Assembly: GCA_964566945.1 (NCBI GenBank)
Contig: CAZMKE010000007.1
Coordinates: 175,743-239,742, forward strand
Direction: 5' to 3'
Length of the DNA: 64,000 nt
DNA from: an uncultured Verrucomicrobiota bacterium
GTDB taxonomy: Bacteria; Verrucomicrobiota; Verrucomicrobiia; Limisphaerales; SXQI01
Of the stretch, positions 4,761-22,744 are shown piece after piece (position 1 is the first letter of the stretch; each line of letters opens with the position of its first letter). The translations under genes and the position numbers were made by a program. The notes beneath the pieces were generated by a model. That model was not told the origin of the DNA, ran no database searches, and was given only the letters and a program-made list of their open reading frames with translations.

Positions 4761-4764
4761 AGCC

Positions 4765-6240
4765 ATGAATCCCCTCGAACATCTTCGACTCGACCCTCGC
4801 CTCATGTCCCGACGGGATATGCTTCGGCGGGCCGGGCTGGGGTTTGGCGGATGGGCGTTGCTGGATCTTCTCGTTCGGGATGCAAGGGCGATTTCCACCG
4901 GCCCGGCGGGGGCCCCTCTGGCGGCTCGTCCTTCCCATTTCGTTCCGCGCGCCAGGAACGTGATTTTCCTTTTTATGCAGGGCGGGCCAAGCCACATCGA
5001 CACGTTCGATCCCAAGCCCCTTCTGCGGAAGCTGCATGGCCAGCCCCTTCCGCCAAGTGCGACCGAGGGCTTGCAGCTGCGGTTTACAAAAATGGACGCC
5101 TTGATTCATGGCTGTCGCCTGAATTTCTCGAGATGCGGCCAGTCCGGCCTGGAAATCGCCGATAGCTATCCGTACTTGCAGCAATGCGCCGATGAATTGG
5201 CGCTGGTCCGTTCCTGCTATCACGACGCATTCAATCATTCTCCGGCGCAATACATGATGAACACCGGTTCAGCGCGGATGGGGCGTCCCTGCTTGGGATC
5301 ATGGGTCACCTATGGGCTGGGGAGCGTCTCGGAGAATTTGCCGACGTTCGTGGTTATGGCCACGACGAACAACACCAAGGGCGGCCCGCCAGTTTATGGC
5401 CGCGGTTTTTTGCCGGGCACCTATCAACCGACGGTCTTGCGAAATTCCGGCGCGCCGGTGCTTTACCTGGACCCGGCGGAGGGAGGGCCGCACCACGATC
5501 AGCGGGAAATGCTCGATCTGGTGCAGTGGATGAACGAGCGCCACGCGGCGGAACGAGGGCCCGACGTGGAAGATCTGGCCGCGCGAATCGCGTCGTACGA
5601 ATTGGCTTTCCGCATGCAATCGGCCGTGCCCGACGCGGTTGACCTGAGCAAGGAGACGGCTGCAACCCGCGAGCTGTATGGCGTGGACGATCCAATTTCC
5701 GGCGCGTATGCCCGCTCCTGCCTGCGGGCGCGCCGGCTGGTCGAGCAGGGCGTGCGGTTTGTGCAGATCTTTACGGGCAGCGCCGGCAGTGACGACTGGG
5801 ACAATGCGCATGCCGACAATGACGGCGTGCATGCCTCCATGGCCCGGCGAATTGACAAGCCCACTGCGGCGTTGTTGATGGATCTAAAAGCGCGAGGCTT
5901 GCTCGAAAGCACGCTCGTGGTGTGGGGCGGCGAATTCGGACGAACTCCGATCGCTGACGGCCGCTATCCGGACAAGCGGGCCGGACGAGACCATAATCCT
6001 TACGGGTTCACGACCTGGCTAGCGGGCGGCGGGGTCAGGGGCGGGCAAGTGATTGGCGCGACGGACGAGTTCGGATTTCGCGCCGCGGAAGATCGGGTGC
6101 ATATCAATGACCTCCATGCCACGATCCTGAAGCTGCTAGGCCTGGACCATAAAAAACTGACTTTCCTTTTCGAAGGCCGGGAGATGCGCCTGACCGACGT
6201 CGGGGGAGAGAACGATTTTGCTGCCCGACTGACGGCCTGA
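4765..6240 (+). CDS. DUF1501 domain protein (sulfatase-fold), Tat signal
   Basis: Tat motif SRRDMLRRAGLGFGGWA. Also MQGGPSHIDTFDPKP, WDNH-type WDNAHADN, GGEFGRTP and the C-terminal LTFLFEGREMRLTDV, typical of DUF1501. I chose the ATG at 4765. Confidence 0.9.
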   Translation: MNPLEHLRLDPRLMSRRDMLRRAGLGFGGWALLDLLVRDARAISTGPAGAPLAARPSHFVPRARNVIFLFMQGGPSHIDTFDPKPLLRKLHGQPLPPSATEGLQLRFTKMDALIHGCRLNFSRCGQSGLEIADSYPYLQQCADELALVRSCYHDAFNHSPAQYMMNTGSARMGRPCLGSWVTYGLGSVSENLPTFVVMATTNNTKGGPPVYGRGFLPGTYQPTVLRNSGAPVLYLDPAEGGPHHDQREMLDLVQWMNERHAAERGPDVEDLAARIASYELAFRMQSAVPDAVDLSKETAATRELYGVDDPISGAYARSCLRARRLVEQGVRFVQIFTGSAGSDDWDNAHADNDGVHASMARRIDKPTAALLMDLKARGLLESTLVVWGGEFGRTPIADGRYPDKRAGRDHNPYGFTTWLAGGGVRGGQVIGATDEFGFRAAEDRVHINDLHATILKLLGLDHKKLTFLFEGREMRLTDVGGENDFAARLTA

Positions 6241-6310
6241 CCGGTGGTGCGTGTTTTGAAGACTCGTCGCAGGGGCGGACGCGGTGCGGCATCAAGAAAA
6301 TGCAAGCCTT

Positions 6311-7588
6311 ATGAAAACTATCTTACTGATTTGGGCGCTGACGCTCTGCCAACTGCATGCTGATGTCCGGTTTGCAAATTTCTGCGAGTGCGACGGCTGG
6401 ACAAAATGGTCGCCGCGCTCTGAGATTACTCCACGATTCTCGATTTCGGAAGACCAGGGCCGGGAGCATGACGGAGCGCTTCGGATCGAAACGCGATCGG
6501 CGGCGGAGTTTGGCGCTTGGAAAATTTCCGTGCCCGACGTGAAAGGAGGGCGAACCTATCGGCTGGAGGTCTGGTATCAGGTGGCGTCGGTCCCGTATGA
6601 AAAACGGTCAGTGGCGCCCCGCCTGGAGTGGTTTGATGCCACCGGCAAGTCGTTGCGTCCGCCCGAATTTGGACTGGCGGTGGCGGAAGAGCGTGGTTGG
6701 AAAAAAGCTCAGATCGTCACTCCAGCTCCGGAGGGGGCGGTGAGCGCGGAAGTGCAGCTTGGATTTGGTTTCGCGGAGAACGCATCGGTCCTTTTCGATG
6801 ATTTCTTGTTTCAGGAGGAAAAAAAGCCGCGCGATCGCGTGGTGAATGCAGTGACGGTTTTTCACCGGCCGCGCTCGACGAAAGGCGCAGCGGAAAGCGT
6901 CGAGGAGTTTTGCCAGATCGCGGCGCGCGCGGCCGCGCAAAAGCCGGATGTCGTGTGCCTTCCAGAAGGAATCTCCGTGGTGGGCACGGGCAAGACTTAT
7001 TCCGAAGTGAGCGAGCCGATCCCCGGTCCTTCCACGGCGCGACTCGGAACGCTGGCCCGGCAGTTGCATAGCTACGTGGTGGCGGGGCTTTATGAACGGG
7101 ACGGGACTTTGGTCTATAACACGGCGGTCCTGATCGGCCGCGACGGCAAGCTGGCAGGAAAATATCGCAAGACCCATTTGCCGCGCGAAGAGTGGGAAGC
7201 GGGAATCACCCCAGGCCAGGACTATCCGGTGTTTGAAACTGATTTTGGCACTGTCGGACTGATCATTTGCTGGGACGCGCAGTTTCCTGAACCGTCGCGC
7301 GCGATGGCGGCCAAAGGCGCTGAGGTTCTGCTGCTGCCGATCTGGGGCGGGAATGAAACGCTGGTGAAAGCGCGGGCGATTGAGAATCACGTTTTTCTGG
7401 TGAGTTCCAGTTACGACATGAAAACGTTCGTCCTGAATCCGGAGGGGAAGGTCCTGGCGGAGGCGAGCCCGGAAAATCCAATCGCCTTTGCCCAATTGCG
7501 CCTGGATCAGAAGATTTTTGAATGGTGGCTCGGCGATATGAAAGCGCGGACCTGGAGGGAAAGGCGGCCGGATATTCGAATCGATTGA
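6311..7588 (+). CDS. Secreted carbon-nitrogen hydrolase (nitrilase superfamily) with an N-terminal beta-sandwich-like extension of about 190 aa
   Basis: Signal peptide MKTILLIWALTLCQLHA. An E-K-C triad context is visible: VVCLPEG, YRKTHLP and GLIICWDAQFPE. Confidence 0.8.
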   Translation: MKTILLIWALTLCQLHADVRFANFCECDGWTKWSPRSEITPRFSISEDQGREHDGALRIETRSAAEFGAWKISVPDVKGGRTYRLEVWYQVASVPYEKRSVAPRLEWFDATGKSLRPPEFGLAVAEERGWKKAQIVTPAPEGAVSAEVQLGFGFAENASVLFDDFLFQEEKKPRDRVVNAVTVFHRPRSTKGAAESVEEFCQIAARAAAQKPDVVCLPEGISVVGTGKTYSEVSEPIPGPSTARLGTLARQLHSYVVAGLYERDGTLVYNTAVLIGRDGKLAGKYRKTHLPREEWEAGITPGQDYPVFETDFGTVGLIICWDAQFPEPSRAMAAKGAEVLLLPIWGGNETLVKARAIENHVFLVSSSYDMKTFVLNPEGKVLAEASPENPIAFAQLRLDQKIFEWWLGDMKARTWRERRPDIRID

Positions 7589-7669
7589 GCGGCAGTTTCT
7601 GAATAAAAGGCTGAGCTGCCGAAACGCCGCCTTGCCGATGCAGTTTGATTCTGGTAGTCGCGATCCGGA

Positions 7670-7882
7670 ATGGAACCGAACGAAGCGATTGAGCAACTGC
7701 GAGCCAGCGCCGACCAGATTGCCCGAGTGATCACCGGGATGCACCCGATCGTGCCGAAATTGCAGAACGCCCCGGCTCAGGGTGAAATGATCAAGGCTCT
7801 TTTCGAACTCACGAAACAGGTGGAGGTGGTGAAGAAGCACCTGCTCCGGCTGCAGAAAGGCGACGATTCGCGCATTCTTTGA
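7670..7882 (+). CDS. Small helical hypothetical protein (70 aa); doubtful
   Basis: An ORF only. Its 3' end overlaps the non-conserved C-terminal tail of the convergent cyclase gene by 74 nt, and I recognise no family. Confidence 0.25.
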   Translation: MEPNEAIEQLRASADQIARVITGMHPIVPKLQNAPAQGEMIKALFELTKQVEVVKKHLLRLQKGDDSRIL

Positions 7883-9665
7883 GCCGGCCGAGAGCGGACA
7901 CCGCAAAGATCAGCGGGTAAAGCCGCTCGAAATACCACAAGCGGGCAAAATAGAGGCCAATCGGCGCCGCCTCCTGGCCGCTGTCCTCGCGGAGAAGGCT
8001 GAGCAACCGGACCACTCCTCGTTCCAGCGCGACCTCGGGTCCGGACAGAGGAGCCAGCGCCTCAAGAGCCAGGGCGGTTTCTTCAATTGATTCGGGAGTA
8101 TTGGCTGCGCCACCCCAGCCGCCCGTTTCTTGCTGGACAGAGAGGAGAAATCTGGCCGCGCGATTCTGCACCTCCCGGAACTCTGGAGGCAGGGCGCTCA
8201 CCTCATTTAGCCCAATGAGAACCTGCGCGGTTCCGTAGACTGGATTGGATTCATCGGAAGCATGTTCGTTCCCAAACCAGAGCGGTTGGAATGATCCGTC
8301 CCAACGCTGGCTTTTGGCGAGGAAGCGCAAGGCCTTTCCGGTGGCACGGTCCAGAACGTGGCGGACGGTTGGACCCACATGATCACGCCAGCTGGAGAAA
8401 GCGCGGAGGGCATGCGCAGTGATTTCGGGAGTGCTTCGATCAAACGGCAGCGTTCCCCAGCCGCGACAGAACGTGGGGACTCCGCCGTCACTATTCTGCA
8501 GGCCGAGCAGCCAGTGAATGCCGTGTTCGGCGGCGGACACGGTCTTCCCGTTGATGGCTCCGAGATGGTGAAGCGCCACCAGAGCCCCGGCGGTATCGTC
8601 CGCGTCCGGAACGCCGCCCGGGAGATTTGTCCACGCCCATGCGCCTGGCGCCGCTCCGGTGTAGGGATGAACGATTTTGGTTTGTTCAGCGAGCAGGCTT
8701 TGGCTCAGGTGATGGCAGTCCTCTACTGACAGAATCCCGGCCTGGGGTCGAAGCGCTTTGATGCTCAAGGTGGTGACCCAGGTGGAGAGGTTGGTGTCGA
8801 TCGGCCAACTGCCATCGGCCCGGACCGAAGCGCGAAGAAAAGAGACGGCGCGGTTCGCCACCAGGCTGCGGGCCTGGCCCGCCGCTGCGAGGCTCATGGT
8901 CACAAAAGCGGTCAGGGGTGTTGCTTCCAGGAAGCCGCCGTTCACGGGTTGGAGGCGCTCGAGCAAAGCAAGAGCCCGGGGCGCCGCGAAGCAGCGGAGG
9001 GTGCGGGCGAGGGGGTTGCGGGAGGGCGCGTGCGCGTGGATCACGTTCCCGATCGCGATCAGAGCCGGCAAGGCGTAGCTGACCACGGGCAAGCGAAGCG
9101 CGCCGAACAGGCTTCGCGGAAGAACGGCCAGTTCGAAGGGAAGCGCGGGAATTTCGCGCCACAATTCCGGACCGAACCGTCCGCTGATGGCGAGCGTGAC
9201 CAGAATTGGCACGGAGAAGGTGCGGTCCTTGCCATAGCGCTCAGCGATGGCTTCCGGCAGACGATCAAGCGTGCCGGCCCGTTCCGTGAGCCAGCGTTCA
9301 GCGGCGTGAGCTGCGGCGGCGGGGCGAGGATGGCCAGCGACCATAGCCAGCGCGGCCCAGCAAAGTGCGGTGGTCGACATGTTGCTCTTGCTGCGGATGG
9401 TGTCGCCCCAGCCGCCGTCCTGGTTCTGATGGCCCGCGAGCCAGTTGAGGCCCCTTTGGATTAGAGTTTCGTGATCCTCTGCGCTGGTTTGAAGGTCGAT
9501 CTGCCGCAACGCGACAACCGCTACGGCGGTGGACAGAGCACTGCTGCTCAGTTCCCCGCTCCAGCGGCCATCGTCTCCTCGTTCGTTGAGCAACCGGCCG
9601 GTGAGCCGCGCCAGTGCTGACGACACTTCAACGGCCCAGTCGAATGGTGAGGCGCGATTGCTCAC
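7809..9665 (-). CDS. Squalene-hopene cyclase family class II terpene cyclase
   Basis: 618 aa. The protonation motif VPDADDTAGAL corresponds to DxDDTA in SHC. QW-type repeats are present: DDGRWSGE, NQDGGWGD, RADGSWP, RWDGSFQPLW and QETGGWGG. The C-terminal LYFARLWYFERLYPLIFAVSALGRL parallels the SHC GFPGDFYL...FPL.ALGRY. The GTG start overlaps the upstream stop (GTGA). Confidence 0.85.
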   Translation of the reverse strand: MSNRASPFDWAVEVSSALARLTGRLLNERGDDGRWSGELSSSALSTAVAVVALRQIDLQTSAEDHETLIQRGLNWLAGHQNQDGGWGDTIRSKSNMSTTALCWAALAMVAGHPRPAAAAHAAERWLTERAGTLDRLPEAIAERYGKDRTFSVPILVTLAISGRFGPELWREIPALPFELAVLPRSLFGALRLPVVSYALPALIAIGNVIHAHAPSRNPLARTLRCFAAPRALALLERLQPVNGGFLEATPLTAFVTMSLAAAGQARSLVANRAVSFLRASVRADGSWPIDTNLSTWVTTLSIKALRPQAGILSVEDCHHLSQSLLAEQTKIVHPYTGAAPGAWAWTNLPGGVPDADDTAGALVALHHLGAINGKTVSAAEHGIHWLLGLQNSDGGVPTFCRGWGTLPFDRSTPEITAHALRAFSSWRDHVGPTVRHVLDRATGKALRFLAKSQRWDGSFQPLWFGNEHASDESNPVYGTAQVLIGLNEVSALPPEFREVQNRAARFLLSVQQETGGWGGAANTPESIEETALALEALAPLSGPEVALERGVVRLLSLLREDSGQEAAPIGLYFARLWYFERLYPLIFAVSALGRLKECANRRLSAAGAGASSPPPPVS

Positions 9666-10543
9666 AGCGACAGGTGCCCCAGGGCGAGCAGGCCGTAAAA
9701 CGTGTATTCGGGGTCAAGGAAATCGTCGGCCCAATGCCCATGAAAGCCGCCTTCGGCATTCCAGAGCGTATCGAGCAGGTCGAGACATTTTTCGTGGAGG
9801 TTGCTCGGCAGCCGGCGGCCCAGGCAAGAGAGGGCGTGCAGGGCGGTCGAAGTCGACAAGAGGTCCGGGATGGGAGCGCCTGGAACCGCGATGAATCCTC
9901 CTTGAGGATGGGCCTGCCGGAGGATCCAATCGCCAACCGCAGGGTTGACTGGGAACCCAAGGTGCGAAATCAGCGTGACTGCGGCGGCGGTGGGGTTCAT
10001 CGAGCCGGTCTTCTGGGTGGGGAGGTTGCTCCAGGAATGATCGTCCGTCTCAAGCCGTTTCAAGGAACGGATCAGGCGCAGGGCGTCGGGCGGCTTTTGT
10101 TTGAGATCCTGGTAGGCGCCCAACGAGACAAACGCGTCATAGGCAGTTCCGAAGCCAGCCGCGGGGTTGGAGTTGTAGCCGCCGTCCGGCTGGCGGAATT
10201 GCTCGATCCGCTGCAACACGGCGCTGATGGTCTCGGGCGGCGCGCCTCCCGCCACGGCCCAGCAACGAGCTAGGGCTCCCAGATGCACAAAGTCCAAGGA
10301 TGCGCCGTCCCCAAATTGGGTCAACCATGCGCGGGTCTGTTCCGCCGGGACAGGCACATCCAAAGTCTGCGCGCCGGCGAGAGCGAAAATGGTATAATAA
10401 AGATCGGGCTTTCCGTCCCGGTCGCAAGCACACCCTTGAGGAGTGATCTGGCGGGCGTAGAAATCTCTGACCAAGTCCGTTGAGTCCGCCAAGAGGCGGG
10501 GCGCCAGGCGGGCGACCTGGAGCAACTGCAGCCTCAGGCTCAT
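9662..10543 (-). CDS. Prenyltransferase / squalene oxidase repeat protein (single alpha/alpha-barrel, 293 aa)
   Basis: Repeats RQPDGGYNS, AHPQGGFIAV and WNAEGGFHGHW are spaced like prenyltransferase beta-subunit / terpene cyclase barrel repeats. There are ATGA overlaps with both neighbouring genes. Confidence 0.7.
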   Translation of the reverse strand: MSLRLQLLQVARLAPRLLADSTDLVRDFYARQITPQGCACDRDGKPDLYYTIFALAGAQTLDVPVPAEQTRAWLTQFGDGASLDFVHLGALARCWAVAGGAPPETISAVLQRIEQFRQPDGGYNSNPAAGFGTAYDAFVSLGAYQDLKQKPPDALRLIRSLKRLETDDHSWSNLPTQKTGSMNPTAAAVTLISHLGFPVNPAVGDWILRQAHPQGGFIAVPGAPIPDLLSTSTALHALSCLGRRLPSNLHEKCLDLLDTLWNAEGGFHGHWADDFLDPEYTFYGLLALGHLSL

Positions 10544-12297
10544 CCGGCGGGGACAGGCTCAACGGCGCGCGGCTGGGCGGTCGGTTGGGCAGCCCGATTT
10601 AGTTGCTCCTGCTCCTTGCACCAGCCTTTGATTTCCACGTCGTTAAAGATCTTTCCGAGAGTTCGGCGGAGCAGCCCCTTCAGGCTGGCATTCTCGAGGG
10701 ACGCCAAAGCACGAACGGCCTCCTCCTTGTAGCTTTCGAGCAGGTGTTGCGCGCGTTCATCCGCCTTCAATTCACGCGCGAGGGCGGCCAGGCGCGCAGG
10801 GTCGGCGGCTTCCTTTTTCTGCCAGACGGCGTCCAGATAAGTCCGGGTGTCGCCCGCTGCTCGGTCCCGGGCGACCGCCAGAAGGAGGCTGGGGCGCAGT
10901 TGTGCGAAATCGTTCGAGTCGATGCTGCCGTCGAAGTCCGCGAGATCATCGCGAATCTGGTAGGCGATCCCCAAGGCGGCGCTGAACGCGGAGATGACGT
11001 CGGCACATTCATCCTGGCGATTCGCCGCGATGGCTCCCAGGCGCAGGGCAACTTCGAAGGCTGGGGCGGTTTTGCGGCGGAAAATATCAATCACCTGGAC
11101 CGGAGTGAGAACCGATGGAGAACGATTCCAGTCGAGTTCAGCCCCCTGGCCGCGGCAAAGCTCGCGCTGCCCTTCGGAAGCGACGCGGAGCATCTCGCAT
11201 TTGGCCGTCGCCGGCAAATTGCACGAGGCCAGCAAGCGATAACCCTCGCCGATCATCAAATCGCCGACGTTCAGGGCGAAGGGCACGCCAAATTCCGTGT
11301 GCAGGGTCTTCTGCCCATAACGCACGTCGTCGCCATCCTCGATGTCGTCATGGATCAGGGACGCCTTGTGAAAATATTCGACCGCGATGGCAACTTTCTT
11401 CAGATCAGGCGTGACGGGGCTGTTGGAGTCGGCGAGCGCCCGCCAGGCGGCGATGGTCAGGAAGGGGCGCCAGCGCTTGCCAGCTCGCATCAGCCAGTCG
11501 CGCGCCACCTTTTCGGCGGGCGTGGCGGCCGGGCCAAGGAGGATCTCCAAGCTGGCCGGCGTAAACCAGGAATCGACTTCGTCGCGCAATGCTGACAGGT
11601 CGAGGCGCCGGGTTTTGTCGTCGCTGGTGAGGTGGATGTACTCCCAGACCCAGTCCAAGTCGACATTCGTATCGATACAATCGTCCTGCAGCAGGGGCAC
11701 CGCGACGCCGGGAATGGCCGCGGCTTCCATGTAAGGGAAAGCGCGCTCAAGAACACTCAGGCAGCTCACGCCGACAATCGCTTCGATTTTGCCTGTTTGA
11801 ATCAGGCTCATGACAATGGCCGAGCCCTCGGCCACGAGGACGGCGTAGCCGAGCTTTTCCGCTTCGACGGTCAGATCTTGAATCGAACAGAGGCCGCACT
11901 GTTTGCAGAGCAATCCGAACTCATCGAAAGGAGCGGGACACTTGCTCTCCACCCGCAGGCACTTGGGCAATAGGAGCAGACGCCGTTCGAATGGGACGGC
12001 GGCGAGCGATTCGCGCCACATCTCGTTGTTGATCAGAACGCCGATGTAATCGCGATAAATCGGATCACACTGAAGCGCGGTTACCAGGCGGTCCGCGTGG
12101 ACCTTCAGTTCGGCGGCCGGGAGCGGCGGAACCGGATTGAATTCCGCGACGTAGTGGCGAACCGTTTGCAGAATGTGCTGCCGCATTTGCGGCGTGGGGG
12201 GGATGTTCTTTTTCGGCGCCCTCCATTTCTGTAAGGGAACAAGCTTGGGCAGGGCGGGCACTTTACCGATCCCCAGATTCAGCGGCGTTTCGATCAT
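10540..12297 (-). CDS. DUF116 domain fused to a trans-polyprenyl diphosphate synthase
   Basis: The N-terminal half carries the DUF116-like Cys pattern: LLLLPKCLRVESKC, LLCKQCGLCSI, IVGVSCLSVLE and LLQDDCIDTNVD. The C-terminal half carries both Asp-rich motifs: LIHDDIEDGDDVRYG (FARM) and AYQIRDDLADF (SARM). Confidence 0.8.
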   Translation of the reverse strand: MIETPLNLGIGKVPALPKLVPLQKWRAPKKNIPPTPQMRQHILQTVRHYVAEFNPVPPLPAAELKVHADRLVTALQCDPIYRDYIGVLINNEMWRESLAAVPFERRLLLLPKCLRVESKCPAPFDEFGLLCKQCGLCSIQDLTVEAEKLGYAVLVAEGSAIVMSLIQTGKIEAIVGVSCLSVLERAFPYMEAAAIPGVAVPLLQDDCIDTNVDLDWVWEYIHLTSDDKTRRLDLSALRDEVDSWFTPASLEILLGPAATPAEKVARDWLMRAGKRWRPFLTIAAWRALADSNSPVTPDLKKVAIAVEYFHKASLIHDDIEDGDDVRYGQKTLHTEFGVPFALNVGDLMIGEGYRLLASCNLPATAKCEMLRVASEGQRELCRGQGAELDWNRSPSVLTPVQVIDIFRRKTAPAFEVALRLGAIAANRQDECADVISAFSAALGIAYQIRDDLADFDGSIDSNDFAQLRPSLLLAVARDRAAGDTRTYLDAVWQKKEAADPARLAALARELKADERAQHLLESYKEEAVRALASLENASLKGLLRRTLGKIFNDVEIKGWCKEQEQLNRAAQPTAQPRAVEPVPAG

Positions 12298-13586
12298 ACC
12301 GATTGCAGTTGGCTCTTGCTCTTGTCCTCTTTATGTCGCGTTAATTCACGCCGCAAAGTGTCGGCTTTTTCCGCCGCGCCTTGATGCATCTCGCGATAAG
12401 CACCAAAATCGCTGAACCAATACTTTTTGGCCAGCTTATACATCCAGTGCTTCTCCGGGACTTCTTCTCCTGGAAGCCATTGGCTGAAACGAGGTTGCAT
12501 CGCTTCCAGTTCCGCCATGGCCGTGCCGCGCAACGTGGTGTCTCGCGCTCCATGCTTGTGAACGAGTTCCTTGACCAGGTCCGGCCGCTCCAGCACCACG
12601 CACCCGCGAGTGTGGCGGGCGCTCAGCGTGCGAAAATCGCGCAAGAAGGCCGAGTCGCGCATGGTTTCGTAGATGCCCCGGCGGTCGCGGATATTCTCTG
12701 ACGCAAACTGAATGATCGGGCATGGCTCGATGTCACCGGCCGGATTGACATGATGAGAGATTCCGGTCGACATCGGGCAGAGCGCCTGGCCCTTGCCATC
12801 GTAATACGCATCGATGATGGCGATTGGCATTTTGGCCCGCATCTCCACGACGAACTTGCGGACTCGCACTAATTGATCCGGGCGAAGCGCCAGCTCCGGG
12901 TTCATTTTCGGGCCGACGGGCCGGTAGGTGTGATACCAGACGTAGTGGACCCCTCGGGCAATCAATTCCTGCAGCCACGCTTCCGTGAGCAGTTCCTCGA
13001 TGTTGGTCTGGCAAACGCTGGTAGCCACGCCGGTGAGCAGTCCGGCTTTGAGGCAGGCGTCCAACCCCCGCAGGGTTCGATTAAAAACATCCTTTTTTCC
13101 CCGGCGCTGGTCGCTGGTGATCTCACGCCCTTCAATGGAGATGAGGGGAGTGGTGTTGCCAATCGCCCGCAATTCGGTGGCGATCTTATCGGTAATAAAC
13201 TGGCCGTTGGTAAAAACCTGGAAATAGCAGCCGGGATTCGATCGCAGCAACTCCATCAATTCGGGATGCATGAAGGGCTCGCCGCCCAAGATACCGAAGA
13301 ACGCGTTGCCATGGTGCTTGGCCTCGCGGATGGTGCGGTTGAGCGAAGCAAGGTCGATCTGGGTCCGTTCCGCTTCTACATCCACCCAGCAGCCCTGGCA
13401 ACGCAGGTTGCACGAGTTGATGATTGAGAGATAAAGGAATGGCGGAAAGTACTCCCCGCGTTTCAGCCGGTGCTTGAAGCGCTCGACGGACACGAGGCCC
13501 TTGACTCCAAAATTCCAGGCGAATTTGCCCAGGCAATGAAAGCTGGCGGTCCGAGCCGTCCGGAAAATGAGACCCGGCAGCATCAT
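12294..13586 (-). CDS. Radical SAM enzyme (HpnH-like layout)
   Basis: CX3CX2C motif in SIINSCNLRCQGCWV, plus FGILGGEPF. There is a C-terminal Cys pair in ALCPMSTGISHHVNPAGDIEPCPI. ATGA overlaps occur at both ends. Confidence 0.85.
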   Translation of the reverse strand: MMLPGLIFRTARTASFHCLGKFAWNFGVKGLVSVERFKHRLKRGEYFPPFLYLSIINSCNLRCQGCWVDVEAERTQIDLASLNRTIREAKHHGNAFFGILGGEPFMHPELMELLRSNPGCYFQVFTNGQFITDKIATELRAIGNTTPLISIEGREITSDQRRGKKDVFNRTLRGLDACLKAGLLTGVATSVCQTNIEELLTEAWLQELIARGVHYVWYHTYRPVGPKMNPELALRPDQLVRVRKFVVEMRAKMPIAIIDAYYDGKGQALCPMSTGISHHVNPAGDIEPCPIIQFASENIRDRRGIYETMRDSAFLRDFRTLSARHTRGCVVLERPDLVKELVHKHGARDTTLRGTAMAELEAMQPRFSQWLPGEEVPEKHWMYKLAKKYWFSDFGAYREMHQGAAEKADTLRRELTRHKEDKSKSQLQSV

Positions 13587-14419
13587 GATGCCGCGCTCCC
13601 TAAAGCGGCTTTGGCCCGGGCCGCGGCCTCCTCGGCTTTGCGAGCGATTTCCTCCGGGCTCGGCAGGCTCATAAGCACTTCGGGAGGAACGTCAGCGGCC
13701 AGGCTGGCCAGTTTCGTCAGGCATTTTTGTCGCTCGGTCAGCGCCTTGTCCGAATCGCGCTCCTTGGAGAAGCGGGATTGGGCGCGCTCGCTGCGGGTGC
13801 GGAGCATCGAATAAACATCTCCGCCCAGCAGGGCCGAAATATCGATCTTCATCTTTTCACGATTCAGATCAGAGTCGCTCACCACATCCCCGTTGATAGG
13901 GCCGGCTTTGTACTTGGGAAACATGATCGCGGCTTCCGGGCAGACGCGGGAGCACGCCGGGCAGTTCGTTTTGCAATTGTCTTCGTTCTGGACCTGAATG
14001 CGCTTCTCGCCGTCCACGCCATAGACTCCGAACAGGCAAAAACTGAGGCATTGCATGCAGTTGGTGCACCGATCGTAATCAATGACGGGAAACCAGGGCT
14101 TCCACGCGCCCGGGGTGGGGGCGGAGAACCCGTGTTCCAGGCTTCCGACGCGATCCGCGAGTTTCACGGGATCCGATTCCAGTTGTGCAAACCGCACACG
14201 CGGCGAAGGGGACTCGGGCAGGCCATCGGCAAAGCGGCCAAAAACCGCGAGGGGCGTTTCGTCGTCCGGGGCCACTGGGCGTTCGCTGCCGGCGCGCGTC
14301 ACCGAATGTCCGCTTTCAAGCAACGCGGAGATGGCGCTAAACCGCTCCTCGCCGCTCAAGGCTGCGGCACCGTTTCCTTCGTAAAGGATGATTCTGAGTT
14401 GATCGCTTTTCAGGGCCAT
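13583..14419 (-). CDS. 2x[4Fe-4S] ferredoxin-domain protein with Lys/Ala-rich C-terminus
   Basis: CTNCMQCLSFC and CKTNCPACSRVCP are dicluster motifs. The start is set at ATG 14419 (MALKSDQ...), because the ORF-track extension to 14623 overlaps the upstream gene. Confidence 0.8.
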   Translation of the reverse strand: MALKSDQLRIILYEGNGAAALSGEERFSAISALLESGHSVTRAGSERPVAPDDETPLAVFGRFADGLPESPSPRVRFAQLESDPVKLADRVGSLEHGFSAPTPGAWKPWFPVIDYDRCTNCMQCLSFCLFGVYGVDGEKRIQVQNEDNCKTNCPACSRVCPEAAIMFPKYKAGPINGDVVSDSDLNREKMKIDISALLGGDVYSMLRTRSERAQSRFSKERDSDKALTERQKCLTKLASLAADVPPEVLMSLPSPEEIARKAEEAAARAKAALGSAAS

Positions 14420-14424
14420 AGGGT

Positions 14425-14820
14425 CTAGACCGGAATTGGGGTTGAGGTTTCGTCCGGCCTGGTTTCCTTGCCAGCAGGCAGGTTCGGGGTCACGGCAGCG
14501 TTGAACAAAGCGGAACAAGCCTCTTCGGCGGACAATTTTCGAAGGTTGACGACCTCGGTGGTTTCGATCGGCAGCGAGGCGTGCGCGGCCGCGAAGAGCC
14601 ATTTTACGGCGCGCGGGTAGCACGCGGCGATTTTGACCGGGCCGGCCGCCGCCAGGCGCTGCAGCGCAGGGTCGCGACGGGCCGAAAGCTCACAGAGATC
14701 GGCCACCGCCTCGAAAGGTTCGCCGGAATCGCAAAGCTTTTTGAGCACCGCCTTCTTCACCTCGTCGGGGAGAACCCGGGCGTATTGGCAGTGGCAATAA
14801 AGAATCGATGGAGAGGTCAT
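14425..14820 (-). CDS. Cys-containing hypothetical protein (131 aa)
   Basis: MTSPSILYCHCQYARVLPDEV... with further Cys at LCDSG, LCELS and IAACYP. It sits 6 nt upstream of the ferredoxin gene in the same operon. I cannot name a family with confidence. Confidence 0.5.
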   Translation of the reverse strand: MTSPSILYCHCQYARVLPDEVKKAVLKKLCDSGEPFEAVADLCELSARRDPALQRLAAAGPVKIAACYPRAVKWLFAAAHASLPIETTEVVNLRKLSAEEACSALFNAAVTPNLPAGKETRPDETSTPIPV

Positions 14821-14838
14821 GCGCGTTCGACTTTCGCG

Positions 14839-15297
14839 TTACTTGGACTGTTGTTGTTTCTCCAACATTCGATCAATGGTTGCGTCCAGCAGGTTACAGT
14901 AATCTTTGACGTCGAGCGAGCGCGCTTCTGGCGAACCCTCGAACTGGTAAATCCAGCCGCGGTCGTAAGGGGATTCGCTGATGGCGTCCAATGTGGACTC
15001 CAGAGCTGGGTTTCCGCTGACGAACCGTCCTTCGGCCACGCAAAAAATGTCGCTGAGCGCTTTGAAGCCTTCGATGCTGCCGAGGACATCTCCGGGCACG
15101 ATTGGATCGCCAGAGCGCCGCTCCAGCTGCAGATCGACAATTTCTCCGAGCATGCGGAGCGCGAACTTGGTGTAACCAACGCGCCATTGATTGGCGGTGT
15201 CGTCCACCCGGCTGAGCCAGCAGTGGGAATGGGTGAAGCGATACGCATCCGGCAGATGAGTGACGAAGGTGGCGCGTTTGTAAAAGACGGTCGGCAT
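14839..15297 (-). CDS. Glycine cleavage H-protein-like (lipoyl/biotinyl-attachment fold) protein
   Basis: GDVLGSIEGFKALSDIFCVAEGRFVSGN parallels the GcvH G.VESVKAASD...P.SG.V..VN, with the lipoyl-Lys position conserved. SPYDRGWIYQF parallels DPYG.GW. Start set at ATG 15297. Confidence 0.75.
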   Translation of the reverse strand: MPTVFYKRATFVTHLPDAYRFTHSHCWLSRVDDTANQWRVGYTKFALRMLGEIVDLQLERRSGDPIVPGDVLGSIEGFKALSDIFCVAEGRFVSGNPALESTLDAISESPYDRGWIYQFEGSPEARSLDVKDYCNLLDATIDRMLEKQQQSK

Positions 15298-15392: not shown

Positions 15393-16508
15393 TTGATTTA
15401 CTTCGACCACAACGCCACATCGCCGATTTGTCCGGCGGCGCGCGAGGCTTGGCTGAAGGCCTGCGAGAATTATCCGGCAAACCCAGCCAGCCCTCACCGG
15501 CTAGGGGGCAGAGCTGAGGCTGCTCTCGAGAATGCCCGGGTGCAAGCAGCCGAGCTTTTGGGCTGTTCCCCGTTGGATCTGGTCTGGACCTCCGGGGCGA
15601 CCGAGTCGAACAACGCGCTTTTCCACCATGCTGGTTTAGCGGGGGCGGGCGAGGCCTGGGTGTCAGCGGTGGAGCACCCCTCCGTGCTCAGACCGGCCCG
15701 GCGTTGGTTCGGCGAACGTTTGCGGACCATTCCAGTCAACCGGGAGGGGGTGGCGGACCTCGATTGGATCGAAACCGGCCTCCGAAAGGCCCGGCCTTCC
15801 CTGGTGGCAGTGATGGCGGCCAACAACGAGACCGGCGTGCTGCAGCCATGGCGTGACGTATTGCGCCTCTGCCGGGAGCGCGAAGTGCCGTTCGCGTGTG
15901 ACGCGGCCCAATGGGTGGGAAAGCAACCTTCGCGCGGGCTGGGGGATTGTGATTTTGTATCGGGCTGCGCTCACAAGTTCGGCGGACCGGTGGGCGTCGG
16001 GTTTATGAAAGTCCCGGCGCGGTTTCGACCGCTGCTGGTGGGGGGAGAGCAGGAACGAGGCTTGCGCTCGGGCACGCAGAACGTCGCTTCGGTGCTGGCG
16101 ATGGTGGCGGCATGGCAAAAACGAAATGAGCAGACTGCCGGCGGTGAGGCCGTGGAACGCGAAGGGTTTCGCGATCAGTTTGTCCGATTGCTGGCGGCGA
16201 GGTTGGCGGAATTTGAGGTCTTGGGAGGAGGACAAGCGCGTCTTTGGAATACGGCCACCGTGCTGTTGCCCGGGTCCTGTCGCAACCGCTGGGTGGTGAA
16301 ACTGGACAAGGCCGGATTCGCCGTTTCGACCGGCTCCGCATGTGCCAGCGGCAAGGCGGAGCCTTCGCATGTTCTGACGGCGATGGGCTACCCATCGGAA
16401 GCGGCGGAGCGGATGATTCGGTTCAGTGCCGGCTGGGAAACTGCGCGTGAAGACTGGGAAGCTCTGGCCGCGGCGGTATTAGCGCTGGCGGAGGGAGGCG
16501 CTGTGTAG
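15393..16508 (+). CDS. Cysteine desulfurase (class V aminotransferase, NifS/IscS-like)
   Basis: N-terminus IYFDHNATSP. PLP-Lys context SGCAHKFGGPVGVGF. Active-site Cys loop STGSACASG. TTG is the only in-frame start after an upstream TAG. Confidence 0.85.
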   Translation: MIYFDHNATSPICPAAREAWLKACENYPANPASPHRLGGRAEAALENARVQAAELLGCSPLDLVWTSGATESNNALFHHAGLAGAGEAWVSAVEHPSVLRPARRWFGERLRTIPVNREGVADLDWIETGLRKARPSLVAVMAANNETGVLQPWRDVLRLCREREVPFACDAAQWVGKQPSRGLGDCDFVSGCAHKFGGPVGVGFMKVPARFRPLLVGGEQERGLRSGTQNVASVLAMVAAWQKRNEQTAGGEAVEREGFRDQFVRLLAARLAEFEVLGGGQARLWNTATVLLPGSCRNRWVVKLDKAGFAVSTGSACASGKAEPSHVLTAMGYPSEAAERMIRFSAGWETAREDWEALAAAVLALAEGGAV

Positions 16509-17576
16509 CGGGGCGGAATCGGAGAATCTTCCGCTGCCGGCTCCCTGCACGTCCTGCAAGGAGGAGATTTGTGATTGGCCCGAGAGCCAGTCGTTAACCG
16601 GGGCGGCGAGGGCGTCGAGATAAAACGGAAGGAGTTCGTGCGCTGCCCTTGGGACGAGGAGCAGTTTATTTCCGGGGCCGGCGAGTTCGTAGAGGCGCTC
16701 GACTTGGTCCGGAGGCGCGATTCGGTCCGCTTCACCCGCGACGAAAAGGGCGGTTTCGTGATTCGCTTCCATCCATCGATCGGGGTTCAGCTCCCGTTCC
16801 GGCACATGCAGCAGTTCGGGCAGCTTGTGCAGGCCGGCGGTGACGAAGCTTTTGGGCACCCAGGGCGCGTATTGTTGTCGGATGTTTTGAGCGGCGCTCG
16901 CGAGATCGGCATAGGGCGACATCGCTACGACTTTGTCCAAGCGCGGATCGCGCAGCTTCCAGCGGAGCGCCAGCACCGCGCCGTACGAATGGCCGACCAC
17001 GCAGACCGGTTGCGCGAGATTCCTGCCTGCGCCCAGCTGATCCAGCAAGGCCGACAAATCCTGAATCTCCTGAGTGCCGAAGTAGATCTGCTTCCCGGTC
17101 GAACGTCCATGGCCCCGCAAATCCACCAAAACGCAGCGCCAGCCCTCCTGAGCCAGTAAGAATGCCCAGGGCAACATGGCGAAGCCGGCCACTCCATAGC
17201 CGTGCAGCAGGACTACAAGGCCCCGTGGGTTCTGGCTCCAGCGATTGGTCCTTTCCGCCGCGGATGCAATTTTGGCGTCAAAACTTAAGTCGAGCGTGCC
17301 CTTGGCTTCGTCCACCCGGTTGGTCCAGTGGAATTGGTAGTCGCCAGGGTCGATGATCCGGTAGCGGATTCTCGCCGCCGGAGACGGAATCTGCAGGTAT
17401 TGGTTGGGGAAGCCGGTCAGGAGCTTCTCGCTGAAGCGGAGAGTGACCGGTGCGTTCGGGGTGAACCAGGTCGGGTAGGTGTTTGGGGCCTGGGCCATCC
17501 GGCGGGCGGCAAAATTCCCGCAGCCCATCCCGCAGAGCAGGACGAACAGCGGCAGAATCACCCGGAGGGCTCTCAC
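16479..17576 (-). CDS. Alpha/beta hydrolase (secreted or lipoprotein)
   Basis: VVLLHGYG, VDLRGHGRS and the nucleophile elbow VVGHSYGA, with an N-terminal signal LPLFVLLCGMGC. Confidence 0.8.
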   Translation of the reverse strand: MRALRVILPLFVLLCGMGCGNFAARRMAQAPNTYPTWFTPNAPVTLRFSEKLLTGFPNQYLQIPSPAARIRYRIIDPGDYQFHWTNRVDEAKGTLDLSFDAKIASAAERTNRWSQNPRGLVVLLHGYGVAGFAMLPWAFLLAQEGWRCVLVDLRGHGRSTGKQIYFGTQEIQDLSALLDQLGAGRNLAQPVCVVGHSYGAVLALRWKLRDPRLDKVVAMSPYADLASAAQNIRQQYAPWVPKSFVTAGLHKLPELLHVPERELNPDRWMEANHETALFVAGEADRIAPPDQVERLYELAGPGNKLLLVPRAAHELLPFYLDALAAPVNDWLSGQSQISSLQDVQGAGSGRFSDSAPLHSASLRQR

Positions 17577-17701
17577 GAGGGGTTAGCATAGAGCCCGCCA
17601 GCGAGGTCGCCATGAGAATTTGGTTTTCGTGGTCATCGCCGCCCGACTTGCCGAGAGGCGGCGCGGCCCGCACTTTAGCCGCTTCCAGTCCTGGTTGGAG
17701 A

Positions 17702-19450
17702 ATGGAGACGAAACCAAAGAAAGGTTTGCGCAGTTTGTTCGGCGTGCTGGCGTTCCTGGGAAGATACCCGGGACGGATTGCCGTCTGCATCTCGCTGCTT
17801 CTGGTCAATATCAGCATTGAAATGTCGCTGCCGCAGATCATTGGGAGCGCGGTGACCAATCTGCGCTGGCACATGGAGTGGGGGGCGGAATTTGCGCGGA
17901 ACAGCTACGTGCTCTTATTCCTGTCATTGGTCCTGATTCGGGCGGGGGTCGGCCATGTGATGGGCCCGGCACGCAACCGGCTCGTGCAAACGACGCTGGG
18001 TGACATTCGCAGCGCCATCTATGACACGATGCAGCGGCTCGCCTTTTCCTACTATGATCGAACAAGCTCCGGGGAACTGATCTCGCGCGCCACCACGGAC
18101 GTCTGGAGGCTCCAGGATTTCTTTTTCGCCTGCCTATTGATGGCGGTGGATATTGTGGTTTCGCTGGTGGTGACCGCCTTGCTCATTTTCTGGATCAGTC
18201 CGGTCCTGGCGCTGATCACTCTGGCGACGGTTTTGCCGACTGCGGGGCTGCTGGCCTACTATTCGAAGATCCTGCATCCCCAATGGCGGAAGGTGCACGA
18301 TCTGCACAGCGAAATGACAACGGTCGTGCAGGAGAACATCGCGGGCGTTCGGGTGGTGAAGGCGTTTGCGAAGGAAGGAGCTGAAGTCGGCAAATTCACG
18401 CGGAAGCGCGACGTTTACGTGGAAACCATGATGCGGACGGTGTCCTTTTGGGCTGCCCGCGTCCCCCTGGCCCAGTTTATTTTTGGGCTGGCTCTCCCCC
18501 TGGTGCTCTGGCAGGGCGGCCGGGAAGTGATCCGCGGCGAAATTCTCCTGGGTGATTTGGTCAAGGTGATCTTTTACTTGTTGGCGATCGGCAACCGGAT
18601 GGGGGCGATTGGCCAGTTCACCAATATTATTCAGAATGCCAGCGCCAGCGCGGAGCGCGTGATGGAGGTGGTGCAGGAGCCGGAAAGAATCCGCAATGGC
18701 CATAAAAAACTCCCGCCAACGGGCGGATCCGTGGAATTCCGGCAGGTCAGCTTTGAATATGGGAAAGGCAAGCCTGCGTTGATCGACGTAACTTTCATCG
18801 CGGAACCCGGGAAAACCTACGCGCTGGTCGGACCGACCGGCTCAGGCAAAAGCACTTTGGTGCACTTGATTCCGCGGTATTACGACGCGACCTCCGGCAG
18901 TGTTTGGATTGACGGCATCGACATTCGGGAAATCGATGTGCGGGACTTGCGAGCCCGGGTGGGCATCATCTTCCAGGACACGTTCCTCTTTAGCGCATCG
19001 GTGGCGGAGAATATCGCCTACGGCAGGCCCGACGCGCACCTGGCCGAGATCGAACGATGCGCGAGGGCGGCGCAGGCCCACGATTTCATTACGGAGCTGG
19101 AGAGCGGGTACGATACGATCGTGGGCGAGCGTGGCGTGACCTTGAGCGGCGGGCAGAAGCAACGCATTGCCATCGCGCGTGCGTTTTTGATGAATCCCCG
19201 CTTTCTGATCCTGGATGATGCCACAGCGAGCGTGGATTCCCGCACGGAACATGCCATTCAACGAGCTCTGGCGGACCTGAGCGCCGGCCGGACCACGTTC
19301 ATTATCGCGCATCGGTTTTCCACAGTGCAGCACGCGGACCAGATCCTGGTTTTGAAGGAGGGGCGGCTGGTCGAGCGCGGGACGCACCATGAATTGGTCG
19401 GCCGGGGCGGGTACTACTCGGAGATTTACGAGCAGCAACTGCATAAATAG
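17702..19450 (+). CDS. ABC transporter, fused permease/ATPase (exporter half-transporter)
   Basis: Walker A GPTGSGKST, signature LSGGQKQR and Walker B FLILDDATS, with six predicted TM helices N-terminal. Start moved to ATG 17702 (METKPKK...) to avoid overlap with the convergent hydrolase gene. Confidence 0.9.
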   Translation: METKPKKGLRSLFGVLAFLGRYPGRIAVCISLLLVNISIEMSLPQIIGSAVTNLRWHMEWGAEFARNSYVLLFLSLVLIRAGVGHVMGPARNRLVQTTLGDIRSAIYDTMQRLAFSYYDRTSSGELISRATTDVWRLQDFFFACLLMAVDIVVSLVVTALLIFWISPVLALITLATVLPTAGLLAYYSKILHPQWRKVHDLHSEMTTVVQENIAGVRVVKAFAKEGAEVGKFTRKRDVYVETMMRTVSFWAARVPLAQFIFGLALPLVLWQGGREVIRGEILLGDLVKVIFYLLAIGNRMGAIGQFTNIIQNASASAERVMEVVQEPERIRNGHKKLPPTGGSVEFRQVSFEYGKGKPALIDVTFIAEPGKTYALVGPTGSGKSTLVHLIPRYYDATSGSVWIDGIDIREIDVRDLRARVGIIFQDTFLFSASVAENIAYGRPDAHLAEIERCARAAQAHDFITELESGYDTIVGERGVTLSGGQKQRIAIARAFLMNPRFLILDDATASVDSRTEHAIQRALADLSAGRTTFIIAHRFSTVQHADQILVLKEGRLVERGTHHELVGRGGYYSEIYEQQLHK

Positions 19451-21820: not shown

Positions 21821-21840
21821 TCGGTCAGTTAATTTTTGGA

Positions 21841-21868
21841 AGCGCCAACGGCTCGTTGGCGCTTTTTT
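21841..21868 (+). terminator. Rho-independent terminator after the lipoprotein gene
   Basis: AGCGCCAAC (21841-21849) pairs with GTTGGCGCT (21855-21863), followed by a T-run through 21868. It ends 3 nt before the ispE ATG. Confidence 0.7.
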
Positions 21869-21871
21869 ATT

Positions 21872-22744
21872 ATGCAGGTCGAGCTGAATTCACCCTGCAA
21901 GGTTAACCTCATCCTCAATATTCTGCGCAAGCGGCCGGACGGCTTTCACGAGCTGGAGACCGTGATGCAGCCCGTTCCGATTTTCGATCGGCTGCGCCTC
22001 GAAACGACGGCGAGTGGGATTCAGTTGAGCTGCAATCATCCGGGATTGCCTACTGATTCGGGGAATCTGGTGTATCGGGCTGCTGAATCGTTCTTTAAGG
22101 CCGCCGGGATTTCGGCGGGGGTGCGAATCCATCTCGAAAAGCAAATTCCGCTGGCGGCCGGTTTGGGCGGAGGAAGCGGGAATGCAGCCGTAACCCTGGC
22201 GGGGTTGAACGGCCTTTTCGGTTCTCCATTGTCCAACGCCGATCTGCAGCGGTTGGCGAGCGCTCTCGGGTCGGACGTTCCTTTCTTTCTCCAGGACAAG
22301 CCCGCCATCGGAGTGGGGCGGGGAGAGCAGGTTCGATCTCTGGACAAGTTTCCGGTTCTGCAGGGCAAAGCCTTGATTTTGATCCATCCAGGTTTTGGCG
22401 TCTCCACCGCCTGGGCTTACAAGAACCTCGCCCGGTTTCCCGAAGCGCTGAACGGCGTTCCCGGTCGGGCGGATCGGTTGGTGCAAAACTTGCAGGTGTC
22501 GGTCTCGGCAGCAGCGCCGGACTTCTACAATTCCCTGGAAGCGCCGGTTCTGCGGAAGTTTCCGTTGTTGGCCATGTTTCAGGATTTTCTCCGGGCCGAA
22601 GGGGCTTTGATCGCCATGATGTCTGGCAGCGGTTCCACCACATTTGCCATTGCGGAGACGTTAGCGAAAGCGGAAGCGTTGCTGGAGCGATTCCGGTCGA
22701 AGTTCGGCTCCTTCTGCTGGACGACCAGCGTGGTTTTCGCCTGA
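21872..22744 (+). CDS. ispE: 4-diphosphocytidyl-2-C-methyl-D-erythritol kinase
   Basis: N-terminus SPCKVNLILNILRKRPDGFHELETV. GHMP kinase motif PLAAGLGGGSGNAAV. C-terminal MSGSGSTTFA. Confidence 0.85.
   Translation: MQVELNSPCKVNLILNILRKRPDGFHELETVMQPVPIFDRLRLETTASGIQLSCNHPGLPTDSGNLVYRAAESFFKAAGISAGVRIHLEKQIPLAAGLGGGSGNAAVTLAGLNGLFGSPLSNADLQRLASALGSDVPFFLQDKPAIGVGRGEQVRSLDKFPVLQGKALILIHPGFGVSTAWAYKNLARFPEALNGVPGRADRLVQNLQVSVSAAAPDFYNSLEAPVLRKFPLLAMFQDFLRAEGALIAMMSGSGSTTFAIAETLAKAEALLERFRSKFGSFCWTTSVVFA

Follow-up and report, generated by a model that had tools for sequence, protein, structure and literature searches.

A conserved Verrucomicrobiota operon joining an SHC-like cyclase, a DUF116-prenyl synthase fusion and a radical SAM enzyme: a candidate module for nonhopanoid cyclic terpenoids

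The 64-kb stretch of DNA examined here (the window, whose positions serve as coordinates throughout) comes from an uncultured Verrucomicrobiota bacterium and carries, on its minus strand, a compact operon that brings terpenoid enzymes together with iron-sulfur (Fe-S) proteins. Seven open reading frames (ORFs) lie head to tail at 7809-15297, as established by an ORF and junction check. In reading order they encode a GcvH-like lipoyl-carrier protein of 152 amino acids (aa; 14839-15297); a 131-aa protein with four invariant cysteines and no family match (the Cys4 protein; 14425-14820); a 278-aa ferredoxin-like protein matching the Fer4 and 4Fe-4S dicluster families (13583-14419); a 430-aa radical SAM enzyme (Pfam Radical_SAM; 12294-13586); a fusion of a DUF116 domain to a trans-prenyl diphosphate synthase (10540-12297); a 293-aa protein made of a single α/α-toroid, here called the barrel, with a weak Pfam Prenyltrans match of 37 bits (9662-10543); and a 618-aa class II terpenoid cyclase resembling squalene-hopene cyclase (SHC; Pfam SQHop_cyclase_N and SQHop_cyclase_C; 7809-9665). 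A Pfam scan of the operon proteins upheld all domain assignments made in the initial annotation of this DNA.

Four of the six junctions are 4-nt overlaps: GTGA between the cyclase and barrel genes (9662-9665), and ATGA between those for barrel and fusion (10540-10543), fusion and radical SAM enzyme (12294-12297), and radical SAM enzyme and ferredoxin (13583-13586). The other two are gaps, of 5 nt between ferredoxin and 131-aa protein (14420-14424) and of 18 nt between the latter and the GcvH-like protein (14821-14838). The overlaps and gap sizes first annotated were all reproduced, and the short starts proposed for the ferredoxin (14419) and the GcvH-like protein (15297) give proteins within the length ranges of their orthologues, 277-283 aa and 130-159 aa, respectively. 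The seven genes are one conserved, translationally coupled unit. An Rfam scan of the window returned neither a riboswitch nor any other RNA, and a promoter and terminator scan returned nothing exceeding shuffled expectation.

The distribution of the cluster was surveyed with an alignment of the radical SAM enzyme, run against one genome of each species; at least 600 stretches matched and at least 591 were confirmed as relatives, to which a metagenome scan contributed 80 further loci. The best 80 relatives, none of them below 57% identity in this enzyme, come from Verrucomicrobiota and Planctomycetota, as well as from metagenome-assembled genomes labelled Vicinamibacterales and Abditibacteriaceae. 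Remoter orthologues (36-40% identity) occur in Kiritimatiellota (Pontiella), Lentisphaerae and Bacteroidota (Plebeiibacterium). The cluster itself was found in Verrucomicrobiota, Planctomycetota, Kiritimatiellota, Bacteroidota and unassigned metagenome contigs, and because its gene set and order are repeated in dozens of loci of other organisms, the grouping is more than chance. The initial annotation had made its reading depend on the operon being conserved as a unit in relatives, and so it is found to be.

When the window proteins were mapped onto all loci, three layouts emerged. The first runs GcvH, CobW, Cys4 protein, ferredoxin, radical SAM enzyme, DUF116-synthase, barrel and cyclase, with or without NifS; the second runs Cys4-ferredoxin fusion, radical SAM enzyme, DUF116-synthase, barrel and cyclase; the third is divergent, with the radical SAM gene facing those for cyclase, DUF116-synthase and barrel. 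Across the 60 loci having at least 7 kb on either side of the radical SAM gene, the DUF116-synthase fusion and the ferredoxin each accompany it in 35, the barrel in 33 and the cyclase in 31. When the remaining ORFs around the cluster in related loci were grouped by similarity, every other family proved to be confined to five loci or fewer, so that the genes listed make up the whole conserved set; no methyltransferase, glycosyltransferase, reductase or squalene synthase-like partner emerged from it. The invariant core consists of the Cys4 domain plus 2x[4Fe-4S] ferredoxin, the radical SAM enzyme, the DUF116-synthase, the barrel and the SHC-like cyclase. A CobW-type GTPase lies between the H-protein and the 131-aa protein in many relatives and is absent from the window and from two close relatives (L089 and L090). 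GcvH, CobW and NifS are confined to clusters of the Planctomycetota/Verrucomicrobiota type, and we therefore treat them as lineage-specific accessories added to the core.

The cyclase comprises two α/α-barrel domains with QW-type repeats and a DADDTA motif at residues 354-359, its DxDD (D354-D357) being coded at 8595-8606. It scores 85.5 bits against the hopene cyclase model TIGR01507 (cut-off 431.1) and 125.9 bits against the squalene/oxidosqualene cyclase model TIGR01787 (cut-off 322.7), and it likewise falls far under the NCBIfam cut-off for the oxidosqualene cyclase (OSC) family. A profile built from 13 orthologues and searched against PDB families ranked the SHC of A. acidocaldarius first (130 bits), followed by lanosterol synthase (70.6 bits), drimenyl diphosphate synthases (60-63 bits) and ent-copalyl diphosphate synthase (35.8 bits), which places the enzyme, on profile similarity, closer to triterpenoid than to diterpene cyclases. 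In the alignment to SHC, D354-A-D356-D357 corresponds to D374-D377, H418 to H451, Y477 to Y495 and W463 to W489; 57 orthologues share D354, D356, D357 and H418 without exception, and Y477 is invariant in the 13-sequence alignment. With the DxDD, His and Tyr residues retained, the alkene-protonating machinery is intact, even though the enzyme is not a canonical SHC.

These features fit an "SHC-like" clade already described in the Planctomycetota-Verrucomicrobiota-Chlamydiota (PVC) and Fibrobacterota-Chlorobiota-Bacteroidota (FCB) superphyla, whose members keep the catalytic residues and whose genomic context suggests a nonsqualene precursor (Santana-Molina et al. 2020, PMC7306690). A 2025 study in Molecular Biology and Evolution assigns the same kind of cyclases to a clade of "unknown function" and likewise suggests a precursor other than squalene (PMC12414744), and the published trees put the PVC/FCB SHC-like sequences outside SHC (PMC7306690, PMC12414744). 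The window cyclase would belong with this clade by its PVC/FCB hosts, its length of 618 aa (clade range 550-700), its catalytic residues and a context containing no squalene synthase. Our literature search found no functional study of the clade.

In the fusion protein, a Cys-rich DUF116 domain (residues 75-220, coded at 11638-12075; 124 bits) precedes the synthase domain (residues 263-505, 10783-11511). The latter matches polyprenyl_synt (PF00348) with 148 bits against a cut-off of 27 and has both Asp-rich motifs, the first (FARM) as DDIED at residues 317-321 (11335-11349) and the second (SARM) as DDLAD at residues 450-454 (10936-10950), along with GKRxRP and KT. The FHKASLxHDDIED, GKRWRP and KT segments are conserved, with the FARM, GKRWRP, KT and two of the three SARM aspartates at 88% or more across orthologues. 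DUF116 is joined to the synthase in all 77 orthologues, in which seven of its cysteines, including a CxxCxxC motif, are invariant.

The best PDB match of the synthase is the geranylgeranyl diphosphate (GGPP) synthase of P. horikoshii, and its nearest solved relatives are archaeal-type GGPP synthases. Chain length, which the initial annotation had left to be predicted from the residues preceding the first DDxxD, can be read from positions -5 and -4 before the FARM: these are Ala and Ser in the window protein and its orthologues, with a conserved Phe at -8, and they are likewise Ala and Ser in the long-chain-type enzyme 3OYR. Aromatic residues occupy -5 in the GGPP synthases 1WY0 (Tyr) and 5JFQ (Phe) and in 6KD7 (Phe), an unnamed polyprenyl synthetase; the window protein lacks this aromatic residue of type I short-chain GGPP synthases. 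According to an established rule, credited to Ohnuma and co-workers, chains grow no longer than C20 where position -5 is aromatic. By that rule, the alanine at -5 suggests a product longer than C20, a call that we hold loosely. As for DUF116 itself, PDB sequence and profile searches gave no match and hence no solved relative, and we found no functional study of it in the literature; Makarova et al. predicted that it binds metal and resembles flavodoxin, and they recorded its fusion to the synthase in Pirellula staleyi (PMC5898192).

The radical SAM enzyme carries its CxxxCxxC motif (CNLRCQGC) at 13389-13412 and a conserved YRLAKKxWFFGFGAYG motif at its C terminus, and its family comprises 283 representative clusters at E ≤ 1e-30. 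No NCBIfam model reaches its cut-off with this protein, and the names of second-tier relatives (about 30% identity) are uninformative. Its description as HpnH-like in the initial annotation does not hold as a statement of family membership: the HpnH model TIGR03470 gives 47 bits against a cut-off of 225.05, the match is confined to the radical SAM core (model positions 16-180), and NirJ/AhbD/BlsE-type models score higher. Six cysteines are invariant in 169 sequences, with one exception at C59: the three of the motif (C59, C63 and C66) and three downstream (C270, C289 and C329), the latter in a region with no SPASM Pfam match. The three additional cysteines could ligate an auxiliary cluster in which one iron is left open.

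Two small proteins encoded upstream serve this enzyme. The ferredoxin combines a variable N-terminal domain, a 2x[4Fe-4S] domain with two Cys4 motifs and a conserved C-terminal tail, and the 131-aa protein has cysteines C9, C11, C43 and C67, which are unchanged in all 13 versions compared, whether split or fused. The four-Cys domain has no Pfam, NCBIfam or PDB sequence or profile match, and a single-sequence AlphaFold2 (AF2) model of the 131-aa protein was unusable (predicted local distance difference test, pLDDT, 46.8); the domain is previously undescribed and probably binds a metal or an Fe-S center. It is fused to the N terminus of the ferredoxin in loci L083, L084 and L086 (from Plebeiibacterium, Pontiella and an unassigned contig), and in the metagenome protein P0125 all three components, Cys4 domain, ferredoxin and radical SAM enzyme, are parts of one 675-aa chain. 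These natural fusions show the 131-aa protein and the ferredoxin to be a redox partner dedicated to the radical SAM enzyme. The idea that the N-terminal domain of the ferredoxin is a Cys-less copy of the four-Cys domain was set aside (hhalign probability 3%, E = 0.014).

The AF2 model of the barrel is of intermediate quality (pLDDT 72.9). Its top 14 Foldseek matches are β subunits of protein farnesyltransferase (FTase), Rab geranylgeranyltransferase (RabGGTase) and GGTase-III, with template modeling (TM) scores up to 0.62, and single-domain cyclases of the MstE type come next. D277 and E279, at least 90% conserved, align with the FTase-β zinc ligands D297 and C299; the chain ends short of the zinc-ligand His position and has no conserved Cys, its conserved residues being R42, D47, D84, H87, R93, D227, D255, D258, D273, D277 and E279. 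The barrel thus shares the toroid fold of protein prenyltransferase β subunits and lacks both their Asp/Cys/His zinc site and their partner, no α-subunit-like gene being conserved near the cluster. It is a putative prenyl-binding barrel and not a zinc-thiolate protein prenyltransferase. A DxD(D) acid motif at the position found in MstE could not be shown in it.

The GcvH-like protein has the H-protein fold and the lipoyl-lysine motif (Pfam GCV_H, PF01597, 56.8 bits): E76-x-F78-K79-A80 is conserved in 28 orthologues, with the codon for the lipoyl lysine K79 at 15061-15063. The NCBIfam GcvH models stay under their cut-offs (61.9 bits against 115.85 for the equivalog), and a scan of the larger ORFs in the window turned up neither gcvT nor gcvP. 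Its gene occurs in clusters of the Planctomycetota/Verrucomicrobiota type only and is absent from L083, L084 and L086.

The conserved unit exceeds the seven genes first reported, as a cysteine desulfurase gene on one side and a 70-aa ORF on the other are conserved neighbors. The close relatives L001, L002 and L088-L090 retain the operon order, always with the NifS-like gene divergent upstream and the 70-aa ORF convergent downstream. In the window, the NifS/IscS-type desulfurase (371 aa, 15393-16508, plus strand; Pfam Aminotran_5) is separated from the operon by a 95-bp spacer and scores 243 bits with the NCBIfam NifS model, under its cut-off; genes of this kind flank the cluster in 19 or more loci, lying upstream in divergent orientation or else downstream of the cyclase gene. 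The 70-aa ORF (7670-7882, plus strand) overlaps the 3' end of the cyclase gene by 74 nt, has no family match, is 56% identical to ORFs placed equivalently in L001, L002, L088 and L089, and was also detected by tblastn in L004, L005 and L166.

Several neighborhoods contain further genes. HicB-like and HicA toxin-antitoxin-like genes and an AAA ATPase lie between ferredoxin and radical SAM genes in L001 (6668-8700) and L002 (8243-8693), at the junction that in the window is a 4-nt overlap, and in L002 the CobW-type GTPase is called as a single product of 672 aa that starts with a MIP (aquaporin) domain (4952-6970), either a genuine fusion or an artefact of gene calling. Clusters of the second layout contain embedded PQQ_2 propellers (two to five), NHL-like proteins and extra ferredoxins (L083, 16120-20827; L084, 8132-9313 and 14057-19997), and similar embedding of Bacteroidota/Kiritimatiellota-type clusters was seen in L122, L128, L143, L148, L149 and L170. 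A link between the cluster and the PQQ_2 genes of the window itself (57082-61068) was dropped, since these are about 25% identical to the propellers of FCB-type clusters and probably unrelated. In the 12.8-kb contig L086, no SHC-like gene is present, and the place usually taken by the cyclase, after the barrel, is occupied by a 702-aa HEAT-repeat protein (7242-9350) in which no cyclase domain was found.

Elsewhere in the window, 6.5 kb from the operon, lies a gene for IspE of the methylerythritol phosphate (MEP) pathway (21836-22744, plus strand; TIGR00154, 211 bits, above cut-off), preceded by two MsbA-like ABC exporter genes (17483-21256, plus strand); neither is a conserved neighbor in other loci. 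Gene pairs of PSCyt2/PSD1 (DUF1549/DUF1553) and DUF1501, typical of Planctomycetota and Verrucomicrobiota, occur at 2787-6240 and 39075-42302; taken with close homologues named for Limisphaerales and Verrucomicrobiae, they assign the window to Verrucomicrobiota. A second radical SAM gene (45929-47332, plus strand), with an N-terminal Zn_ribbon_HMPTM domain, scores best in NCBIfam with TrsS (210.7 bits, cut-off 490) and the tetraether lipid synthase Tes (158.4 bits, cut-off 450) and adjoins a fused AhbA/AhbB-like gene resembling siroheme decarboxylase (47350-48570, minus strand). Its association with the cluster was also dropped, a 31%-identical homologue following the cluster radical SAM gene in L075 only.

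No SQS_PSY/HpnCDE-type or amine-oxidase gene lies within the window, and no SQS_PSY or amine-oxidase gene was found in the Pfam-annotated related loci. Together with cyclase scores far below the family cut-offs, this sustains the contention of the initial annotation that the operon, which lacks squalene synthases and HpnG, is not an ordinary hopanoid locus. Its product is very probably a cyclic terpenoid other than an ordinary hopanoid.

With moderate confidence, we propose that the cluster is a widespread, self-contained and oxygen-independent terpenoid module, centered on the SHC-like cyclase clade, that yields a cyclic polyprenoid, neither hopanoid nor sterol. The synthase domain would elongate dimethylallyl diphosphate and isopentenyl diphosphate to a prenyl diphosphate of regular all-trans type that probably exceeds C20 and whose terminal double bond the SHC-like enzyme would protonate through the DxDD, His and Tyr residues described above before closing the rings. 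The barrel would bind the prenyl chain as a partner subunit, a transferase or a second cyclase, the radical SAM enzyme would carry out one radical step on the lipid with electrons supplied by the Cys4 protein and the ferredoxin, and the seven-Cys DUF116 domain may perform redox chemistry on, or beside, the allylic diphosphate. The GcvH-like, CobW and NifS-like proteins would be helpers, either in metal or Fe-S loading or in a redox or sulfur relay.

Several observations weigh against this proposal. Type III GGPP synthases, too, have small residues at -5 and -4, an exception that makes the chain-length call soft, and the synthase domain is overall most similar to short-chain (C15-C20) enzymes. 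For the barrel, the model is of moderate quality and Foldseek E-values are about 1e-4, which leaves room for more than one role. The radical SAM gene lacks these partners in about 40% of the fully flanked loci, where its surroundings vary, which fits a pattern of dispersed genes; its commitment to the pathway may therefore not extend to every genome.

Among the alternatives, an Fe-S-dependent route to squalene or another C30-C40 hydrocarbon joined head to head or tail to tail, in which DUF116 and/or the radical SAM enzyme would reductively couple two prenyl diphosphates from the fused synthase and the SHC-like enzyme would cyclize the product to a triterpenoid of hopanoid-like kind, strikes us as unlikely. 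It would account for a cyclase profile nearest to SHC and then to OSC in a cluster devoid of SQS or HpnCDE, for a short-chain-like synthase always fused to a seven-Cys domain, and for the cluster's own dedicated low-potential electron carriers; in a Bipolaricaulota isolate, moreover, DUF116, IspH, a polyprenyl synthase, an SHC and an enzyme annotated as HpnH are grouped, and the listing includes no squalene synthase (bioRxiv 10.1101/2025.11.21.689855, Fig. S12). However, such coupling is without known precedent, the ferredoxin fusions involve the radical SAM enzyme and not DUF116, and Ala/Ser at -5/-4 speaks against farnesyl diphosphate as the product. The published sister clade cyclizes regular head-to-tail chains (PMC12414744), and HpnCDE is already carried by Planctomycetota (PMC7306690).

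We are similarly doubtful of a second alternative, in which a small molecule or protein is prenylated and then cyclized to a meroterpenoid or cofactor-like product, with the barrel as transferase, the radical SAM enzyme building or modifying the head group, and the dihydrolipoyl arm of the GcvH-like protein possibly serving as acceptor. The fold of the barrel, nearest to protein prenyltransferase β subunits and with conserved carboxylates at zinc-ligand positions, would suit it, as would the occurrence of the cyclase sister clade (Lon15, AtoE) in meroterpenoid and polyprenyl natural-product pathways (PMC12414744) and a sequence conservation of 70-85% within Verrucomicrobiota, appropriate to a cofactor-like role. 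Yet no acceptor-forming enzyme is conserved in the cluster, Bacteroidota and Kiritimatiellota clusters do without GcvH, and the Cys/His zinc site and α subunit expected of a protein prenyltransferase are both wanting.

Very improbable, in our estimation, is a mere adjacency of two unrelated modules, one for Fe-S/GcvH redox chemistry or lipoylation and one for terpenoids. GcvH, CobW and NifS are indeed limited to some lineages, toxin-antitoxin insertions split the ferredoxin and radical SAM genes in L001 and L002, and in many loci the radical SAM gene, sometimes with those for the Cys4 protein and ferredoxin, lies apart from the terpenoid genes; on the other hand, ferredoxin and radical SAM genes adjoin the terpenoid genes in distant phyla that have no GcvH, CobW or NifS there, and in the window the radical SAM gene is joined to both its neighbors by 4-nt overlaps. 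Least probable is an ordinary hopanoid locus with SHC, an HpnH-type side-chain enzyme and squalene made elsewhere in the genome, which the superficial layout of a cyclase adjoining a radical SAM gene, the DxDD motif and QW-type repeats, and the HpnCDE/Sqs genes of some Verrucomicrobia (PMC7306690) might recommend, but which is contradicted by family scores (hopene cyclase, 85.5 against 431 bits; HpnH, 47 against 225) and by gene content (no other hpn gene in the window, and a cluster that always brings its own synthase), as well as by trees that set the PVC/FCB SHC-like sequences apart from SHC (PMC7306690, PMC12414744).

Returning to the oxygen-independent module that we prefer, its product might be an unrecognized lipid biomarker of Planctomycetota, Verrucomicrobiota, Kiritimatiellota and Bacteroidota. 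The ubiquitous tricyclic terpane (cheilanthane) biomarkers have long been traced, by hypothesis, to bacterial lipids of the tricyclo-polyprenol type, whose producers, to our knowledge, have never been found. A more specific and rather speculative proposal, to which we give little credence at present, is that the module makes polycyclic regular polyprenoids by a route that needs no oxygen, for example of the tricyclo-polyprenol type, and/or performs a new Fe-S reaction by DUF116 and the radical SAM enzyme; as part of the same tentative proposal, that reaction would act on allylic diphosphates through reductive diphosphate loss or C-C coupling.

Because the cyclase clade and its odd genomic context have already been noted in the literature, the finding is not new in kind. 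New are the complete conserved gene set and its division into core and lineage-specific parts, the patterns of invariant cysteines, the fusions by which Cys4 domain and ferredoxin are linked with the radical SAM enzyme, the chain-length signature and the barrel fold. Recent work names the clade as the main uncharacterized branch of the triterpenoid-cyclase tree, and knowing which substrate it uses would settle how the evolution of hopanoid and sterol cyclases is to be read (PMC12414744). The core is compact, with five or six cotravelling genes and no other conserved tailoring enzyme, and defines a testable pathway; the analysis indicates that the Fe-S proteins are needed alongside the radical SAM enzyme for function, and it ties two domains of no known function, DUF116 and the new four-Cys domain, to isoprenoid chemistry.

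Comparison with known systems helps to place the cluster. Like a hopanoid locus (SHC, HpnH, HpnCDE/Sqs and HpnG), it sets a two-barrel DxDD cyclase beside a radical SAM enzyme and implies oxygen-free chemistry; unlike one, it has both enzymes far under the family cut-offs, no squalene synthase, HpnG or other hpn genes, and its own DUF116-fused synthase, an extra barrel and dedicated Fe-S carriers. With the sesquarterpene (C35) pathway of Bacillus (HepS/HepT, YtpB and SqhC) it would share an SHC-family cyclase fed by a regular polyprenyl diphosphate, whereas it has no YtpB-type class I enzyme, its cyclase belongs to another clade, and the Bacillus pathway has no radical SAM or Fe-S component. 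The epoxy-polyprenyl cyclases Lon15, AtoE, Bra4 and PlaT2 are reported to form the sister clade and to act on head-to-tail C20-C40 chains (PMC12414744); these need an oxygen-dependent epoxidase, whereas the window cluster contains none and its cyclase has the full alkene-protonating DxDD. Protein prenyltransferase β subunits and MstE have their fold in common with the 293-aa protein, which differs from them in its missing zinc Cys/His residues, its missing α subunit and its size (293 as against about 330-440 aa). Another counterpart is the SHC-like clade of PVC, FCB, Spirochaetota and Acidobacteriota, to which the window cyclase corresponds in taxonomic range, length, catalytic residues and genomic context, with nothing that contradicts the assignment.

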